Virus record (IMG/VR): IMGVR_UViG_3300017777_007595
Span: 1-25,826 of that record
Length of the DNA stretch: 25,826 nucleotides
Source of the DNA: a virus
Taxonomy: Duplodnaviria; Caudoviricetes
Strand: one strand, 5' to 3'
Shown: positions 1-20,884 of the stretch, piece after piece
Position numbering within the stretch: the stretch's first letter is position 1
How the letters are laid out: the number at the start of each line of letters is the position of its first letter
Translations under genes and position numbers: made by a program
Notes under the pieces: generated by a model
What the model saw: only the letters and a program-made list of their open reading frames with translations
The model's database searches: none
What the model was told of the DNA's origin: nothing

Positions 1-3000
1 AGTACCAGGACTAATTACAGGGGTTTCTATAGTTATTGTTTTAGTTTGACCTTTTTGGATATATTCCCATGGTGGACCTTCTGGAGCTCCAGGTTCTGGG
101 GTTAGGTCTAGAAAATCCCATCCTGTAGCTGTACCTCGAATTCTAAAACCAACCTTAAGAGGAATATTATTGTTTGGAATGTTATTCCCACTATATGAAG
201 CTTGATTTATTCCAAAATTAACACTTAATGGATTAGCAGGATCAGTACTAAATACTGGAGGATTCCATTTAATAGTTATGGTAAATTTAGCTTTAAGTGA
301 ATAATTAGGAAATGTTACTGGGTTATCTATGGTAATTCTTCCTCTGTTAATGAATGAATCACCCGGATTATTAGAGGTAGGATATGCCGATTGAATTGAA
401 TTCCCACTATTTTGATATATTATATTAGTATTAAAAAGAGGAATTTGATTCCAAGTATGTGGATATTGTAATGAGTTACCTCCTCCGTTTAACTCTGGAA
501 ATTGAAATACCCAATTAATTGGATTTTCATTAATGTTATTAGGTAACCCACCACCATAACCTGTACCATATGTGAAATTATTATATCCGTATACCTCCGT
601 AGAATTATTAGTAGGGCGATTATATAAAGAGTTTTTAAGAGTGTTTGAAGTTTGATTTATACTATACTTTCCTCCAAAATATGGGGATACAGGTTGTTCA
701 CCAGGAGGTATAAATGTTAAAGTTTCTAAAAATCCGGAATTACTTCCTGTTTGTGAATATAAAATAGGTGTAGCATATTCACCTGAGCGATAGATTTTAT
801 ATTTATTATTTCCTGCGAATTGTTCGGCTGAAGAGTTTTTATCAGGATCTAGATATAAGTATCCATCTCTTTCAAATAATTGAATTTGATTATTATAAGT
901 AAAATCACTTAATGCAGGAACTTGAGTATTGATATCTTCATCAATTATATAATCTAGATTAATGATAGTTTTCTTTAATACTTCAGGAGTAGATCCTCCT
1001 TTACTTGTATAATATCCAACAAATGGCTTTAAATTTCCTGCTACTATTTCTTTACCATAACCTGTATCACCAGCAGTATATTCATTAAATTTGGCGGCTA
1101 CAGTTTTAGAACCGTTATATCTCGGAATAATATGTCTTTGTAAATTATAATAGTAATCTTGAACTTGTGCTCTAGTAGCAGTTCCATCAATTAATTGATC
1201 AAAATTGATTGGAGTTAAAGATGAACCAACAATTGGACTAGTAGAATAATCTACATCCATATAGTATTGACTTCTTCTTGCTTCAGATGCGTTACCAAAC
1301 AAAGCATTATAATCATTATTTGTAAAATTTATACTAAAATCAGGTTCTATAGCAACTAAATCTGGGGTATTTAGTTGGGCTGGTGTTTTATAATCTATTA
1401 AAAATTGGTTTATAGAAAGAGTTCTTATACTACCGGCATTAGTAGCGCTAATAACTAAAAATAATTCATCATTTTCAACTGGGAGGGAAGAATTATTAAG
1501 AGTAACAAATAAAGAAAAATTTTGATTTCCTGCTGATGTTAGAATAACTGAATCAAGTATTTCACTATCAAATATAGATTGGTTTATATTTTTTCTAAGT
1601 AAAGCAATAGTTCTTATTCCAGCATCTGTATTAGAACCAGTTCCTGCTACAATTATTGTTATATCATCTACATTTGGAGTTTTTTCAAAAACATAAGAAA
1701 AACTAGATGTATTAAAATTTCCATATCCAAAACCATCAAAATGTACATTAGATATAAATTGATATCCTTGATTTGGAGCAATCCTATTAATTGAAAAAGC
1801 ACCTAAAGTAATAAAAGGAGCACTACCCGTTATATTAGCATTTCCACTTCTTATATCATTGTCATTATTATATACATCAACTGGTATGGTAGGGGATTGT
1901 AGAAGTAGTGGACTTAAGTTATAAAGAGTACCATATGTAGGGACTGAAACTACAGTTGGTAAAATTGGATCGGATATTATATATAGGTAATAGGTAGAGT
2001 ATTGAGATATTTGTTGGATAGGGAAACTAATATTTGTAGTTCCACTTCCATTTTTCATCAAAATATTAATTTGAGTAGCTTGTCCTAATGGTACAGATAA
2101 ATCATCTCCATTAGAATTAAATTTACTTATTTTGATAAATTTATTTTTGCATTGGTTTGGTCTAAAATTAGAAGAAATTTGAATAATAGTTGTATCTATG
2201 CATTCATTGAACAAATATATTTCTCCTTGATCCGGTTCAGTATTTGAGTCTAAGAATTTTTCTTCAAAAATTATCTCATCTACAATATAATATCCATTTT
2301 GTTTTGGAGAAGGACCGGCACTATAGTTTTTATATTGCTTTCCAATATATTGAGTTACAGTATATAAATTTTCTTTAGTAGAAACATCTAAAAATGGATT
2401 AAATTGTTCTTCATAAATTTGTATGGTGGAACCACTAAATTCTCCATTGTAGAATTCATCTTGAGTAGTACGAGATTGAGTAACTAATCCTAATGGAGTT
2501 ACTATAACTTCTTCCCAACTTTGAGTAAAATCAGGAATAAAATTTCTAATAAAAGGATCTGTTCCTCCAAATTCACTGAACCCACCAGCTATACCCCCAG
2601 AAATAAAAGCAGTATCAATAGATGCTGTTTTTTCAAGTTGTTCCCAACTAGCCGCAGGTACTTGATATCTATTTCTTTCTAAAAAATGGGGTTTAATTAT
2701 CAAACCAGATGCTAAACTGGTTTTAGCAGGAACAAAATCTTTAATTAGTTTAAATAATGAATTATCAAAATATTTGATTAATCTTATATAATCATTTAAA
2801 TTATATGGATGAATATATTTACAAAAATATTCATCTCTTAATTTATTTAAATCAGGATAATTATTATTAATTGTAAATCTATATTGAGGATCTCCTATAT
2901 ATTTTCCTATATCAAAATATCCTAAAGATTCAGCTATATCATCATTAATTTCATTTTGAGGTGAAAAACCTACCTCTAAATAATTTATATCTTTAGTATA

Positions 3001-6000
3001 ACTTTGAGAAGCCTCATAATTTTGTTGTAAAGATAATGTGTTAGATAAAACTTCTCCATAAAAAGATGAAGAATTATCTTTTATTTTATTTGAATTAGGA
3101 GTTGATGAACCTACAATAGGGGTATCAACATAATAAACTTCAGTTTGGGGAATTGAATGAGTTAATCCTAGGTTATTATATATAATATCATAATTACTAT
3201 GAGAATCAGGAAGTATTATAGATAAAGACGAACTATTCCCATATAAGTAATATAAAAATGGAGTAGCATAACTTGAGGTTGCATAAATTGAAGCTTCAAC
3301 AATTAAATCAGAACTTCCATTCCAAAATGATTCTGTTATACATGAACCTGTAATTGCTGGATGGAGTGAAGTGTATGTTTCATATAAATTTAATGAAAAA
3401 TAAGGCCCATCTAATAGATTACCTAAAGGAGCCCTAAAATCAACTAAATCTTTTGAAGATCCTGATCCTTGAATAGTATTTCCTTCAACAGATTTAGGAT
3501 TCATTACATAATCATCAAAAGTAGCCTCGCTTATAGGATTTCCATAATATCTAAATTCTTGAAATGAACCAGAAAATAAATTATCAGGTGGTATAATATT
3601 AGAAATTCCATTAGAGTAACCACCTAAATAGGTACCAAAAGGAACAAAAGGTGTTACATAAAAGGAAAAATTATTCCAAGAAGTATTATATGAGGATGAG
3701 ATAGAACCATTTATAGTAATAGAACTAGAACCTTGAAATCCTATTTTATAACCATCAACACCATCATATATTTTATTTTTAGCGTATAAAGTATAAGTAA
3801 TATTTTGATTATCTTCACCACTAGCAGAAACATGAGAATTTCTTTTTAGCATTATACTCCACCAACCACCATCAAAGAAAGGTAAAGATATTTCAGGAGA
3901 TGAAAAATAACCTTCATTCCCATTCATAATTAGCTTTAAACTACCATATTCTTTACTTTCACTAGGAATTGAACCAGAATAAGATCCACTAAGATATCCT
4001 GAACCTGTATAAGTTAAAAATACTCCAAAATCAAATCCATTATCTAAATAAGTAGTCTTTTTTAAGAGTATATTTTGAGTTAAAGGAGAAGTTTCAGGAA
4101 TACCTTCAGTTTTAAATCTTAAAGCAATAGTATCAGGTAATATTACTTGTTGAGAATTATAAAAATTTCTTAATAAAGGTAACCAAGGAATTAAAGGTTG
4201 TGCTTTATTTTGAGTGTTAAAAGCATAAGAAAAATAATTATACCAATAATCCCAATCATTTACATTAGTTTTATCTTTACCTCCATATTCAACCATTCTT
4301 AATAAGGTATCTGGGATACCATATAGAGTAATAAGAGTTCTTAATCCTTCTAAAGTACCTTTAGTTTTTAGTAAATAAGGTAAATTATGATAAATTCTTT
4401 TATAAATTTCTTTATTTAAGTCTTCAACAGGAAATAAAGATCCTGTAGCCGAGGCTGTTATGAATGTATCTATGTACTCATATCCTACTGGAGGGGGTAA
4501 AGTAGTAGAAGCATTGGAAATATTGTATAAACTTCCTGAGGGAGTAATTCCTAATAATGAAGAATATAAATCATTAGTTGAAAAATTATTTTGATATATT
4601 TTAAGACCAAAATCTCTTAATATATTAGCAACTAAATCTTTAGAAACTCCATAATCTAATCTATTATCAGCATTGTATTTATTAGTTATATCCTTTATAT
4701 AAATCCAAACATTATCAAAATGTTGTCCTAACATTTCAACAAATAACTGCATTTTAGAATTATTTGAATCTTCTACTAAATATGAAGGAATAGAATTTAA
4801 TAAATAATCTTTATTTTCAGAATCATAATCTTCTGCTACTATTGATTGGGTTTCTAACCAACTAACAGAAATAGGATCAGTTGTAGTTAAATTAATATAA
4901 GGATAAGTAGAATTAGATTTTGGAAATGCTGTACTACCTGATTCATAATAAAGATAATATTCATAACCATCAAAATTAGTTATAACATCATTTATTTTAT
5001 TTAACCATATATCATAACTTTTAGAAACATAAGTATTAGTAGTAGTATTTAACGATAAACTACTATTTGCTTGATATTGTTCTATTAAAGTTAATTTTAT
5101 AACAAAGTTTTCTAATCTAGTTTTTGCTGAGGAAAAATGGATGAAATTAGAATAATCAGAATAATCAACATTAATTTCTATTCCTTTTTCGGCTAAAATA
5201 CTATCTAATTGATATTTTAGACTTCCTGTTCCTAAGGTTGAAGTATTTGTAAGTAAAGAATTATAACTTGTAAATTCTGTTGAATTATTTACTTTATCAT
5301 CAACAACCAAATTTAAGTTAGGTCCTTTTATTTGAATATTTTCATCTCCAAAATCAAATATTAATTGAATATCTATTTGATATGCTAATGATTCTGCTAT
5401 TTTATCAGTTACCCATAATTCTGATTTTAAATCAAATTCTGCAGGTAATGGTTCATAAAGTTTTATTAAAACAGTAGGATCATTAGGATTAGAATCATCT
5501 AATAAAACATTGGTAGCAATAATTAATTTATCATCTCCAAAATTTAAATAGAAATCAGGATAAGACCCTTGAGAATAAAATATTTGATTAGTTAATCTGT
5601 TAGCTTCAAAAACTAATATATTATTAGCTATTTGATTAGTATTTAATCTTATTTCTGTTCTATCAGAACTTATTTCTTGAATAAAGAATCTTGAAACAAA
5701 TGAAGAACCTAATAAATTAGAAACAAAATTATATTTAGTAATGTATTGTCCTTCAGTAAATCCTTCATTTTCTAAATTTAATTGAGGATCAATATTGATA
5801 TTACTATCAAGTATAGAATAATTAGGATAAAATGCATTATAAGCAAGAACATTTTTATTTAAATCAAAAACTAAATACTCAACAGTATCTATATTAGGAT
5901 CAAAAGAAACTTCAACCTCAGAATTTGATATTAAACCCTGGTCTGAAGTAGAATAATTTTGAAATTCTAAAGTATTAGGATCTAATGTTTGTATATTGAC

Positions 6001-17100: not shown

Positions 17101-17128
17101 ATGGGTATCCAATTTCTTGAATACCCAT
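17101..17128 (-). terminator. Strong GAAA-tetraloop hairpin, possible terminator or processing site
   Basis: ATGGGTATTCAA-GAAA-TTGGATACCCAT, a 12-bp stem with one U-G pair; only a weak U-tract follows. Confidence 0.5.
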
Positions 17129-17161: not shown

Positions 17162-17314
17162 CTAATCTTCTATACCCCCGGAGTTAAAATGTTTTTTGTA
17201 TTTATCCTTTTTTTTATTAGGAACCATCTTAGTTTTAAACCTCCCATCATAAAATCCTTGTTCTTTAGCGGATTCTCTTTGCTTTTTTTTAGCAAATTCA
17301 AAATTCTTATTCAT
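17162..17314 (-). CDS. Small basic protein (50 aa), ArfA-like candidate; not in the ORF track
   Basis: Manually translated MNKNFEFAKKKQRESAKEQGFYDGRFKTKMVPNKKKDKYKKHFNSGGIED*; fills the gap and is co-oriented with its neighbours. Confidence 0.65.
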   Translation of the reverse strand: MNKNFEFAKKKQRESAKEQGFYDGRFKTKMVPNKKKDKYKKHFNSGGIED

Positions 17315-17328
17315 AACGAAAAATAAAA

Positions 17329-17343
17329 AAAGGGTTCTTCAAC
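17329..17343 (-). repeat. 3' arm of a long-range inverted repeat (anti-boxA), followed by a U-tract
   Basis: Minus strand GTTGAAGAACCCTTT is complementary to 17687-17701 with one G-U pair. Confidence 0.75.
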
Positions 17344-17350
17344 GGGTTAA

Positions 17351-17668
17351 TTATCCTTTGATTAGATTTTTATTATTTAATTTCATTTGGGCTTCATGGG
17401 CCCCCGTAAGCTTTGCTTCGAGCTTATCAATTCGCATATCAGTATATGCGTTAGCCATATCTCTAGTAGTTGTATAATTATTTTCAATACGTTGATGATA
17501 ATCTTTAAAGCGATCATTCATATCATAACGAGACCATGAGATATCTTGTTCAATATATTTAATTTGTTTTGATTGTTTGAATACCTTCACAATACTATAA
17601 ATAACAGCAGCTACAACTAGCATAGCAACCATCGTTAGCACTCCAAAAGTAAAATACATTGTTTCCAT
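17351..17668 (-). CDS. Single-pass membrane protein with coiled coil
   Basis: TM helix YFTFGVLTMVAMLVVAAVIYSIV, then a helical soluble domain. Confidence 0.85.
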   Translation of the reverse strand: METMYFTFGVLTMVAMLVVAAVIYSIVKVFKQSKQIKYIEQDISWSRYDMNDRFKDYHQRIENNYTTTRDMANAYTDMRIDKLEAKLTGAHEAQMKLNNKNLIKG

Positions 17669-17685
17669 AATTTGTTATTTTTTGT

Positions 17686-17701
17686 TGTTAAAGAACCCTT
17701 T
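17686..17701 (-). promoter_or_regulatory. boxA-like element and 5' arm of the long-range stem
   Basis: GTTCTTTAACA (17686-17696) fits the boxA consensus GYTCTTTAANA; lies immediately 3' of the tRNA. Confidence 0.65.
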
Positions 17702-17702
17702 G

Positions 17703-17776
17703 TGATTCTGATTGGATTCGAACCAATGACCGACAGCTTAGAAGGCTGTTGCTCTATCCAACTGAGCTACAGAATC
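17703..17776 (-). tRNA. trnR: tRNA-Arg(UCU)
   Basis: Acceptor GATTCTG/CAGAATC, D-arm GCTC-AGTTGGATA-GAGC, anticodon arm ACAGC-CTTCTAA-GCTGT, T-arm ATTGG-TTCGAAT-CCAAT; CCA not encoded. Confidence 0.96.
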
Positions 17777-17788
17777 ATTAATTTTATA

Positions 17789-17820
17789 TAAAGTTAATAA
17801 AAAAATATCTGTAAGCCAAA
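17789..17820 (-). promoter_or_regulatory. Bacteroidota-type promoter for the tRNA-Arg cassette
   Basis: TTTG-N20-TAACTTTA, ending 12 nt upstream of the tRNA 5' end. Confidence 0.6.
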
Positions 17821-18411: not shown

Positions 18412-18439
18412 AAAAAAGTAGCCCTAATTAAAGGGCTAC
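18412..18439 (-). terminator. Intrinsic terminator after the DUF932 gene
   Basis: GTAGCCCT-TTAATT-AGGGCTAC followed by TTTTTT. Confidence 0.85.
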
Positions 18440-18459
18440 CTGTAATACCTAAATTAATT

Positions 18460-19215
18460 TTAAGCGTATTGTTCAGCTAGCTTCCATAATTGTTGATTCA
18501 ATTCAACATGCAAACCAGGTGATAAATTACTCATTACGTTTTCTTGAACACGATTAAATACATTCCAAAGTACAGAACCTTCATCTTCAATACGGCGAGG
18601 AACTAACAATTCAACAGCACTAACTTTAGATAATTTTGAAATATCTTTTGCTTTAGTTGCTAGATTGAATTTTTGAGTTTCGTTAAGCTCTATTTCTTTC
18701 ATTTGATTAACAGGTAATAAAATTTTACCGAAATCAGTATTAACTTCTTCAAATGCTCTTTCAAAATTTCTTAATCTAAGATCTGAATTATTTCCTCTGA
18801 TATTGTAACTTTGTTGTTGATCTTGGGCTCTTACTAATCCATTAGAGCAAACTTGACGAAACAAATATCCTGAATCTAGAGTAGAATAATCTTGAACAGG
18901 ATTAACTCGCATTAATACTTCAGGATACAGATCTTCATTTGAAGAAAGTTGCATATTTTCATTACGAAACTTAATAAAGGCTTTACTATATCCTTGCCTT
19001 TTAAATTGTTTACTAGGTTTTTCAACAGCATATACTGGTTTCCAACCTTTTTCACTAGCCATATCAATTACTTCTGAAAAATCTAACATTTTACCTTTAG
19101 TAATTTCAGAAAAAAATGAAGGAGCTAGTTGACGTAATGAATACGTGTCTAGTACTGGGAATTTACCGATAGTTTCATTAGCTAGAAAATCGGGTTCAAC
19201 AAGGTTTAGTTTCAT
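18460..19215 (-). CDS. DUF932 (DUF945-like) family protein
   Basis: LFRQVCSNGLV and LLVPRRIEDEGSVLWNVFNRVQENV signatures. Confidence 0.85.
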   Translation of the reverse strand: MKLNLVEPDFLANETIGKFPVLDTYSLRQLAPSFFSEITKGKMLDFSEVIDMASEKGWKPVYAVEKPSKQFKRQGYSKAFIKFRNENMQLSSNEDLYPEVLMRVNPVQDYSTLDSGYLFRQVCSNGLVRAQDQQQSYNIRGNNSDLRLRNFERAFEEVNTDFGKILLPVNQMKEIELNETQKFNLATKAKDISKLSKVSAVELLVPRRIEDEGSVLWNVFNRVQENVMSNLSPGLHVELNQQLWKLAEQYA

Positions 19216-19235
19216 ATGGTTTGGGTTTTTAAATG

Positions 19236-19296
19236 TGTCATAAAGATACGAACGGAATTTTCAAAATCCAAGTTTTAATATGACTTTGAGATGACT
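19236..19296 (-). promoter_or_regulatory. GTCAT-repeat promoter, copy 1 (class A)
   Basis: GTCAT-N6-GTCAT-N8-TTG-N20-TATCTTTA-TGACA. Confidence 0.8.
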
Positions 19297-19311: not shown

Positions 19312-19533
19312 TTAATTCCAAAAATAATTTTCAGAGTAACCTTTAATGAATCTATTAGCTACCCAATAACTAACATTACCTCCTGCTTCAGTTAAATTTT
19401 TAAATAAAACATCAGCTTCAGGCATTTCTTCAATATCAAATTCAAATTTTTGCAAAACATCGAATCCAATTTCAGAAGCCATTTCTTGATCTTTAAAAGA
19501 ATAGCAAATCATAATTTTTGGTGTAGATTTCAT
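19312..19533 (-). CDS. Hypothetical protein
   Basis: 73-aa acidic ORF directly behind promoter copy 2. Confidence 0.75.
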   Translation of the reverse strand: MKSTPKIMICYSFKDQEMASEIGFDVLQKFEFDIEEMPEADVLFKNLTEAGGNVSYWVANRFIKGYSENYFWN

Positions 19534-19556
19534 GGTTGCGGGGTTTAAATTTGTTA

Positions 19557-19604
19557 TAAATATACGAATGAAAATTTACAAATCAAAATGACGAAACTAT
19601 GACG
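19557..19604 (-). promoter_or_regulatory. GTCAT-repeat promoter, copy 2 (class B)
   Basis: GTCAT-N6-GTCAT-T-TTG-N19-TATATTTA. Confidence 0.8.
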
Positions 19605-19606
19605 TT

Positions 19607-19912
19607 TTATCTATTACTGTAAATAGTTTTTCTTGAGGGTCTAGGATCTATGTTATGTAAATAAATAAAACCAGGAGTATTCTCTTTATAAACTATATTA
19701 CTTTCAAAATAATAAACCGGTCCTGAATAATCCTCATAATAAGGAGTATTGGTTTCATCAAATTGGAGAATCCTTCGTTCACCCTTATAGCTTCTAAATT
19801 CTCTAGGGGTTACTCTATACCATTGTCCTGTATTATAGTGTTTTATTTCTAAACACCTTTGAGTAGGAAACGGATATACTAATTTTGCTGGTTTACCTTT
19901 TTTTTCTGACAT
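19607..19912 (-). CDS. Hypothetical phage protein
   Basis: 101 aa; WYRVTPREFRSY.GERRI motif; overlaps the upstream gene end. Confidence 0.75.
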   Translation of the reverse strand: MSEKKGKPAKLVYPFPTQRCLEIKHYNTGQWYRVTPREFRSYKGERRILQFDETNTPYYEDYSGPVYYFESNIVYKENTPGFIYLHNIDPRPSRKTIYSNR

Positions 19913-20126: not shown

Positions 20127-20358
20127 CAATCTCAGGTAAAAATCCACTATTTTCAAGAGCCATCCACAAACGTTCTTTCCAGGTTTCATTTTTTACACCT
20201 TCAATTAGGTCTTTATCAGTAGCACCATTAAGAGTAGCCTGACCTACTAAAACTAGAGCTTTTTCAATACTTTCTTGGAACGTAACCATGTCTCCATTTT
20301 TAAAGGATTCTTTTGATTGGTTCCAAAGAGCGGTGATTGGGGAATTTGATTTTTTCAT
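20113..20358 (-). CDS. Hypothetical protein
   Basis: 81-aa ORF directly behind promoter copy 3. Confidence 0.75.
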   Translation of the reverse strand: MKKSNSPITALWNQSKESFKNGDMVTFQESIEKALVLVGQATLNGATDKDLIEGVKNETWKERLWMALENSGFLPEIDEKI

Positions 20359-20381
20359 GGCGTTATGTTTTTATGTTTATG

Positions 20382-20429
20382 TAAATATACGAATAAAATT
20401 TCGGGTTTCAAAATGACGAAATTATGACT
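20382..20429 (-). promoter_or_regulatory. GTCAT-repeat promoter, copy 3 (class B)
   Basis: GTCAT-N6-GTCAT-T-TTG-N19-TATATTTA. Confidence 0.8.
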
Positions 20430-20805
20430 TTTTGATAATCTGATCAATATAAGACTGACTGATATCAAGTTCAGGCTTTAAACAACATACTCGATATGTT
20501 TCTCCTGGGTTTAATCCTACTTTAATTAGAGCTTTAATTTTATCGGATTTCCATTTGAAAAAATCCTCAGTAAAAACTACTCCATAAATGTATTTACAAT
20601 CTTCATCGGAGCGTTCAGTAATACCTTTAATTATATCAACTTCATTTTGTTCGTTTTCTTTAAATAAATTACGAATTTTATCTCTAACTTCTTCTAACTG
20701 AATACGTTTTTCTAAAATTACTTTTTCCTTGTTAGGATAGTCTTTAGTTGATTGAATTTTACAAATTTCAACAACTAGGCTGTTTAGTTCTGATTGGTAG
20801 ATCAT
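20422..20805 (-). CDS. Hypothetical protein
   Basis: Start moved to ATG 20805 (MIYQSEL) because the track start at 20838 lies inside promoter copy 4. Confidence 0.7.
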   Translation of the reverse strand: MIYQSELNSLVVEICKIQSTKDYPNKEKVILEKRIQLEEVRDKIRNLFKENEQNEVDIIKGITERSDEDCKYIYGVVFTEDFFKWKSDKIKALIKVGLNPGETYRVCCLKPELDISQSYIDQIIKKS

Positions 20806-20822
20806 AGGTGCGTTTTTAATTG

Positions 20823-20884
20823 TGACATAAAGATACAAAAGGCCTCTTGCGAGGCCTCTGTTTTTATATGACTTTAATATGACC
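20823..20884 (-). promoter_or_regulatory. GTCAT-repeat promoter, copy 4 (class A, -33 TTG degenerate) with embedded GCAA hairpin
   Basis: GTCAT-N6-GTCAT-ATAAAAAC-AGAGGCCTCGCAAGAGGCCTTTTG-TATCTTTA-TGTCA. Confidence 0.75.

Follow-up and report, generated by a model that had tools for sequence, protein, structure and literature searches.

The window, by which we mean the whole stretch of 25,826 nucleotides that was analysed, is a piece of a large tailed phage with a baseplate-like gene, and its minus strand carries a compact locus in which one small protein-coding gene lies between two complementary strands behind a tRNA. A promoter-like site precedes the tRNA, the promoter consensus of Bacteroidota being TTTG-N19-21-TAnnTTTG. 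The parts of the locus are as follows:

17789..17820, minus strand: promoter-like site TTTG-N20-TAACTTTA, found by sequence inspection, with one mismatch to the Bacteroidota consensus.
17702..17776, minus strand: tRNA-Arg(UCU), CCA not encoded, 3' end at 17702/17703 (ARAGORN; Rfam RF00005, 74.6 bits).
17687..17701, minus strand: 5' (leader) strand of the helix, AAAGGGUUCUUUAAC, consisting of a variable outer stem and most of boxA.
17686..17696, minus strand: boxA, GUUCUUUAACA, which fits the consensus GYTCTTTAANA (PMC5725501).
17669..17686, minus strand: A-rich translation initiation region, outside the helix.
17351..17668, minus strand: ORF of 105 aa with one predicted N-terminal membrane helix, a long helix/coiled coil and a DxRxDK motif.
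17329..17343, minus strand: 3' (trailer) strand of the helix, GUUGAAGAACCCUUU, consisting of anti-boxA and the complement of the outer stem, 7 nt past the stop.
17319..17331, minus strand: U-rich tract overlapping the end of the helix, of a kind found in a minority of relatives.
17162..17314, minus strand: lysine-rich ORF of 50 aa, a local neighbour and not a conserved part of the cassette.

The arms AAAGGGUUCUUUAAC and GUUGAAGAACCCUUU form 15 contiguous pairs, one of them U-G, around a loop of 343 nt; 18 nt separate the end of the 5' arm from the ATG, and the last C-G pair is followed by seven U, one A and five U. The helix is present in both the minimum-energy and the centroid folds (z = -3.2), and in the closed RNA positions -14 to -1 are predicted to be unpaired with a probability of 0.86. 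Within the window alone, rival helices of 13-15 bp with loops within 1.5 kb reach an equal or lower energy (-20.3 for one on the minus strand, -22.5 and -21.2 for two on the plus strand, versus -19.8 for the 15-bp helix), although only 2 of 3000 shuffles of the 3' flank attain its score. From the window alone the helix is not clearly beyond chance, and its proof comes from the relatives. Elsewhere on the minus strand we observed terminator-like hairpins at 18416-18441, upstream of the tRNA promoter, and at 17101-17128, downstream of the 50-aa ORF, as well as a family of repeated intergenic motifs with the core TTCGTAT(A/C)TTTA (19212-19292, 19528-19608, 20353-20433 and 20809-20842), which from their sequence are likely to be early promoters.

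Relatives were gathered both by protein and by a DNA pattern (tRNA T-loop plus GTTCTTTGAC), the latter giving 120 loci among the matches listed, of about 310 estimated; in 34 of these 120, again among the matches listed, the same gene family stands directly behind boxA. A flank set was counted as passing if it held an ORF-enclosing helix at a score threshold of 28, duplicates and short flanks having been removed. Two recombinases (L043, L044), a partial row (L019), two rows with no start (L022, L039), five rows with short flanks and duplicates were excluded from the first set. Of its 48 distinct flank sets 45 passed, versus 7 of 467 other ORFs, and when the 5' flank of one member was joined to the 3' flank of another 13% passed. 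The second set was picked by protein alone (best 80 of 188, best 80 of 335, and all 16), with queries that came partly from boxA-found members, such that the choice of subfamilies is not fully independent of boxA. With 2 short, 24 already seen, 45 duplicate and 1 filtered row left out, the helix was found at the same threshold in 96 of 102 new flank sets versus 1 of 226 control ORFs; the six misses scored 23-27 and show shorter or bulged helices. Across both sets the helix spans 12-26 bp, with a median of 17-18 bp, and the enclosed gene has 79-138 codons. The arrangement of tRNA, boxA, ORF and anti-boxA that the first-pass annotation read from the pairing of 17701-17687 with 17343-17329 is thus confirmed by that pairing and by the relatives, and its proposal to look among homologues for paired flanks and boxA finds both of them kept (helix in 45/48 and 96/102), with arms that covary.

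Two broader readings of the helix were considered and rejected. That it is a general phage feature is contradicted by four long phage records (798 ORFs), in three of which the family gene is the top-ranked ORF; the other top-ranked ORFs of the fourth read as flanked by self-complementary terminator repeats. That it is a property of any tRNA-boxA site is contradicted by the gene-less loci, 59 of which could be drawn from the 80 pattern loci having 1.5-kb flanks: none has a helix on the boxA core at or below -18 kcal/mol, the best being -15.5. Furthermore, no such helix surrounds the ORFs next to the gene in these loci, which indicates that release from a tRNA precursor does not by itself require one. 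A natural control is offered by L020:1196-1492 and L021:3001-3297, where a derived family member on a long protein branch (1.31) sits in the same genomic slot as the gene of the window and, in what is a single event, is without the tRNA, boxA, both arms and the DxRxDK motif. In L005, an array of 12 tRNAs is flanked on both sides by paralogous cassettes (557-865 and 3256-3561), both of which have a helix of their own.

The pattern of substitution in the arms points to the level at which the pairing is maintained. On the transcribed strand the pair cells hold 59 G-U, 2 A-C and 11 other combinations in the first set, and 141 G-U, 11 A-C and 56 others in the second; with G-U so far above A-C, selection acts on the RNA. 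The outer columns, -7 to -1 counted from the boxA G, are paired in 76-83 of 84 rows versus 33-63 in column shuffles, a comparison that ignores relatedness and in which related rows are not independent events. The outer stem has no dominant sequence, with up to four Watson-Crick pair types in a column, and distant lineages (e.g. L007, L023, L315 and L320) have wholly different arms that nevertheless pair, so inheritance cannot explain the pairing. Accordingly, the RNA-level selection that had been suspected from the single G-U pair of the window is borne out by the excess of G-U (59:2 and 141:11) and the covarying outer stem.

The boxA strand evolves differently. A boxA within one mismatch is present in 82 of the 102 protein-picked relatives versus 0.9% in shuffles, and the same motif recurs in host-phylum rRNA spacers, such that the earlier identification of boxA holds and the motif is conserved. 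Toward the 3' end of boxA the partner strand decays, with Watson-Crick pairs in 16-56 of 84 rows at columns 6-9, while the boxA strand itself stays conserved there; the two bases after boxA, which the anchor pattern does not include, are conserved as A (0.92) and U (0.89) and are paired in 12 and 39 of 84 rows, respectively. What is maintained is thus the sequence of boxA and, in the outer stem, the pairing. Of boxA and the helix, the latter is the more constant: about 20 of the 102 have no boxA within one mismatch and 23 no detected upstream tRNA, with the helix nearly always kept, and the protein tree contains two lineages that lost boxA and kept the helix. As lineages without boxA or tRNA keep the helix, Nus binding and tRNA processing appear to be dispensable in some of them. 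The notion that boxA occurs only where a tRNA precedes it, hinted at by the first 48 rows, was weakened in the 102, which comprise 69 with tRNA and boxA, 13 with boxA only, 10 with tRNA only and 10 with neither.

boxA was also observed apart from the gene. It lies directly behind a tRNA with the gene absent in 86 of the 120 viral-contig loci (L050-L169) among the matches listed, and 27 of 59 examined gene-less tRNA-boxA loci have another T-loop motif within 250 nt; the sequence context of such sites suggests a possible rRNA-style antitermination of phage tRNA arrays. In G410 (L217, near 9792) a phage tmRNA gene is immediately preceded by a boxA-like GTTCTTTAAC, some 1.2 kb upstream of the cassette. 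In L109 (= L418), L166, L438, L486 and L496 a second boxA/anti-boxA helix (11-13 bp) surrounds a non-coding RNA that is structured and about 120 nt long; this RNA stands directly behind tRNA and boxA, has inner helices with compensatory changes and is followed by a further conserved element. Searches with Rfam returned no match to it in L109 and L166, and among 103 hits to its pattern 4 have boxA upstream.

The enclosed protein belongs to a large family, with 104 homologues in one search and 578 representatives (50% identity) at E <= 1e-10 in another, which is viral in Atlas clusters. In each of the 102 new members a single hydrophobic segment is present, at the N terminus, together with a DxRxDK-type motif. 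The structure model is a single long helix (pLDDT 88.9), and a three-copy prediction gave 0.67 versus 0.00 for the best control, with at least 94% of contacts agreeing between runs and pLDDT of at least 84; the mark used for it was attained in calibration, on two copies only, by 20 of 30 solved homo-pairs and by 1 of 23 single chains. These predictions speak for a membrane-anchored coiled-coil oligomer without demonstrating it. The family had nothing above the cut-off in Pfam, PHROGs or NCBIfam and no match in GenBank phages or among the viral structures of BFVD; for a chromosomal copy there was one weak genome-contig match that a profile search did not confirm, and weak matches occur in 14 of 401 genomes of the host phylum (best E 5.7e-6). 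The Mu releasin DUF2730 and Rz-like spanins share the architecture of a single membrane helix and a coiled coil, a likeness known here by weak scores (Atlas 0.82; phrog_739 in 10 of 40 members, best E 2.4e-4); in contrast to them, the present family has no significant match and no lysis-gene context. In G407 (L192, ~2500-4200) we observed tandem genes with near-identical N-termini (MDNFDLKKYLVENKV) and palindromic terminator-like repeats between them.

The helix was located relative to the neighbouring tRNAs and to the ends of the ORF. Where ARAGORN called an upstream tRNA, the helix base lies -1 to 2 nt from its end in 21 of 26 and 42 of 64 loci, and where a tRNA follows, it begins 2-7 nt past the helix in 6 of 6 and 2-5 nt past it in 15 of 17. 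Between the 5' arm and the ATG, each of the 141 helices leaves 14-40 nt (medians of 20 and 22 in the two sets), and the stop is followed by the 3' arm at a median of 8 nt; these distances correspond approximately to the edges of the footprints of initiating and terminating ribosomes. The predicted accessibility of positions -14 to -1 is 0.73 with the helix versus 0.67 without the 3' arm. From this free start region and its unreduced accessibility, the helix looks designed to be compatible with translation. The start of boxA lies 26-50 nt before the ATG, and in one subfamily boxA ends about 5 nt before an AGGAG. Enlarged tRNA-like elements of 108-118 nt, missed by ARAGORN and scored as tRNA by Rfam, stand directly before the cassette or boxA at L003:2853-2960, L126:1415-1522 and L166:205-322. 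We also observed a strict SD-like motif before 60 of 102 members (L221-L395) versus 21 of 699 ORFs in four related phage records, a count in which the members are related to one another and to which the copy in the window, having no SD-like motif, does not add. Since ribosomes of Bacteroidetes are reported not to use the SD (PMC7797042), this excess is unexpected if the host is, as seems likely, a member of Bacteroidota.

A Bacteroidota host is inferred from the promoter-like motifs, the scarcity of SD motifs in related records and a bS21 gene, which is present in one of five related records searched. We sampled the rRNA operons of that phylum through 41 genomes, 21 of which have a 23S match, and obtained 10 loci (L171-L180). 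All ten spacers contain tRNA-Ile, tRNA-Ala and GTTC(T/A)TTGAC at 55-223 nt before the 23S. The best helix enclosing the 23S starts in the 3' part of boxA in five of the ten and lies wholly downstream of boxA in three, and the whole of boxA pairs with the strand after the 23S in two (L176 and L177). With tRNA, boxA and helix in the ten sampled spacers, the analogy that the first-pass annotation drew between the cassette and the tRNA, boxA and stem of rRNA spacers holds, and it is demonstrated for the phylum of the likely host.

In light of the observed pairing, boxA conservation and geometry, we propose, with a probability of roughly one half, that the cassette is a Nus-assisted leader-trailer clamp which protects a translatable mRNA freed by tRNA processing; its binding, cleavage, stability and translation we infer as follows. 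Polymerase would read through the tRNA, and boxA would recruit the rRNA antitermination complex of the host, which might keep the 5' strand close to the exit channel as the ORF is looped out. Such Nus-held looping has been put forward for rRNA (PMC10250234; bioRxiv 10.64898/2026.03.17.712431), where the Nus complex bridges the 5' and 3' halves of the helix (bioRxiv 10.64898/2026.03.17.712431). On emerging about 8 nt past the stop, the trailer would pair with boxA and the outer stem, a step whose pairing is backed by covariation and whose timing is presumed, and would thereby displace NusB/E. The cut at the tRNA 3' end, together with an RNase P cut where a tRNA follows, would then fall at the helix base and may leave a near-blunt closed end resistant to exonucleases. 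Judging from the geometry, ribosomes could start and stop inside the loop with the helix unopened. The message is therefore likely to be made, trimmed and protected like an rRNA precursor, yet to be translatable. Among the functions offered in the first-pass annotation, excision or stabilisation of the mRNA is the best reading, the role of RNase III in it being putative.

Several other explanations account for part of these observations. One that is compatible with the clamp, and which we regard as unlikely though deserving attention, is a completion checkpoint, in which Nus tethering would block translation of the nascent message and the trailer would strip Nus off, so that only finished transcripts are translated. 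The boxA in the 5' UTR of suhB does repress translation (PMC5725501), boxA here starts 26-50 nt ahead of the ATG, and a strict outer stem with loose inner pairs would fit a toehold, but the boxA-less lineages keep the helix all the same. A still fuller picture, which we offer as a tentative conjecture, would put the mRNA on the rRNA assembly line of the host: Nus-silenced while being transcribed, stripped of Nus by its own 3' UTR as the helix closes, and trimmed by tRNA nucleases to a sealed, long-lived loop around which ribosomes cycle, with the stop beside the start. We consider it rather doubtful that RNase III cuts the helix as it does in pre-rRNA, an event that would excise the mRNA or start its decay. 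RNase III does cut rRNA leader-trailer helices (PMC10250234; bioRxiv 10.64898/2026.03.17.712431), and the layout matches these at a length of 12-26 bp, but the median of 17-18 bp compares with 25-40 bp in enterobacterial pre-16S leader-trailer helices, for which at least 17 pairs are needed (PMC10250234), and cleavage in the middle would leave the remaining pairs too few to keep the strands together. As the tRNA ends abut the helix base, moreover, no further cut is needed for release of the mRNA.

The remaining alternatives fare worse. An intrinsic terminator with a gene-sized loop that gates downstream genes is improbable in general, even if it might be a secondary use in the clade of the window, where the C-G pairs are followed by seven U in the window and close relatives, and where no local terminator hairpin was found right after the ORF in the window. 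Against the short loop and the U tract of 7-8 nt that define intrinsic terminators, the window has the U tract but a loop of 343 nt, and across the family at least seven U in the 8 nt after the helix occur in just 9 of 45 and 9 of 96 cases (18/141), tRNAs follow at 2-9 nt in 22 loci, a crude scan placed a separate hairpin with a U run behind 23 of 102, and the downstream genes vary freely. Gating of the 50-aa peptide, as had been suggested, does not generalise, the gene being downstream in 5 of 48 loci, two of them without the helix; nor did its description as ArfA-like find support, as it has no match in Pfam, PHROGs or NCBIfam and its only Atlas lead is DUF7230 (0.90, rank 13). The proposal that 5'-3' pairing silences a toxic membrane protein in the manner of type I toxins would suit the single hydrophobic segment of a small protein in 102 of 102 members, and loss of the helix in L020/L021 coincides, in one event, with the long branch (1.31) and loss of the DxRxDK motif. 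Nevertheless, the helix covers the SD or start in 0 of 141 cases, unlike aapA3, where long-distance pairing sequesters the SD (PMC6733600), and a scan limited to the -7 box found an antisense -7 box in 13 of 48 loci, at scattered places. Lying at least 14 nt from the start in 141 of 141, with accessibility undiminished (0.73 versus 0.67), the helix does not support silencing, which we judge very improbable. Lastly, the arms could be terminal inverted repeats, acting in DNA, of a mobile cassette that inserts behind tRNA genes, which would fit a gene found behind many different tRNAs and between changing neighbours; the arm sequences are not conserved, though, and the G-U:A-C ratios on the transcribed strand (59:2 and 141:11) largely refute this reading, to which we give next to no credence.

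The same design is maintained around a single protein gene in a phage family of great diversity. If the Nus-assisted clamp is correct, phages package a message via the rRNA machinery of the host. The varied arms, the boxA-less lineages and the helix-less lineage supply natural variants, and the unit of 370 nt would be a compact test of how Nus looping and leader-trailer pairing affect stability, cleavage and the timing of translation. It might furthermore provide a portable way to stabilise mRNAs in Bacteroidota.

boxA leader-trailer helices are a known means of rRNA folding and maturation. The claim of the first-pass annotation that no described system has this layout is borne out within the literature searched, which lay mostly outside subscription journals and excluded supplements, and in which no phage or bacterial mRNA with this layout was found; boxA is likewise absent from the main text of the paper on bS21-encoding phages (PMC9723584). 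The cassette resembles type I toxin mRNAs (aapA/IsoA, PMC6733600), which likewise encode a small membrane protein and have 5' and 3' ends that pair with each other around the ORF, but in these the SD is hidden by the pairing and an antisense RNA is required, whereas the start of the cassette is free and its protein about three times longer.

Further type I toxin mRNAs with a 5'-3' long-distance interaction are hok and fst. Closer in their use of boxA are the suhB leader of E. coli and the nutL-N leader of lambda, in which a 5' UTR boxA lies within tens of nt of the start; in suhB it represses translation via a Nus loop from 6 nt before the SD and still at 100 nt (PMC5725501). These leaders differ from the cassette in that the available part of their description mentions neither a 3' UTR strand on boxA nor a tRNA context, and their outcome is repression and Rho termination (PMC5725501). 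The closest comparison is with the rRNA operon spacer, in E. coli as in L171-L180, where a tRNA is followed by boxA GTTCTTTGAC and then by a long-range helix that encloses the product. That product is rRNA, whereas the cassette encloses a protein-coding ORF, tRNAs being all that Rfam finds in the window. Furthermore, the helix of the cassette is shorter, begins at the tRNA 3' end and extends upstream of boxA, and boxA itself pairs, whereas the corresponding strand of the E. coli helix is found 18-19 nt downstream of boxA and the effect of that helix is independent of RNase III (PMC10250234). The parts of the cassette are thus known from rRNA operons, and it is their use around an mRNA that appears to be new.
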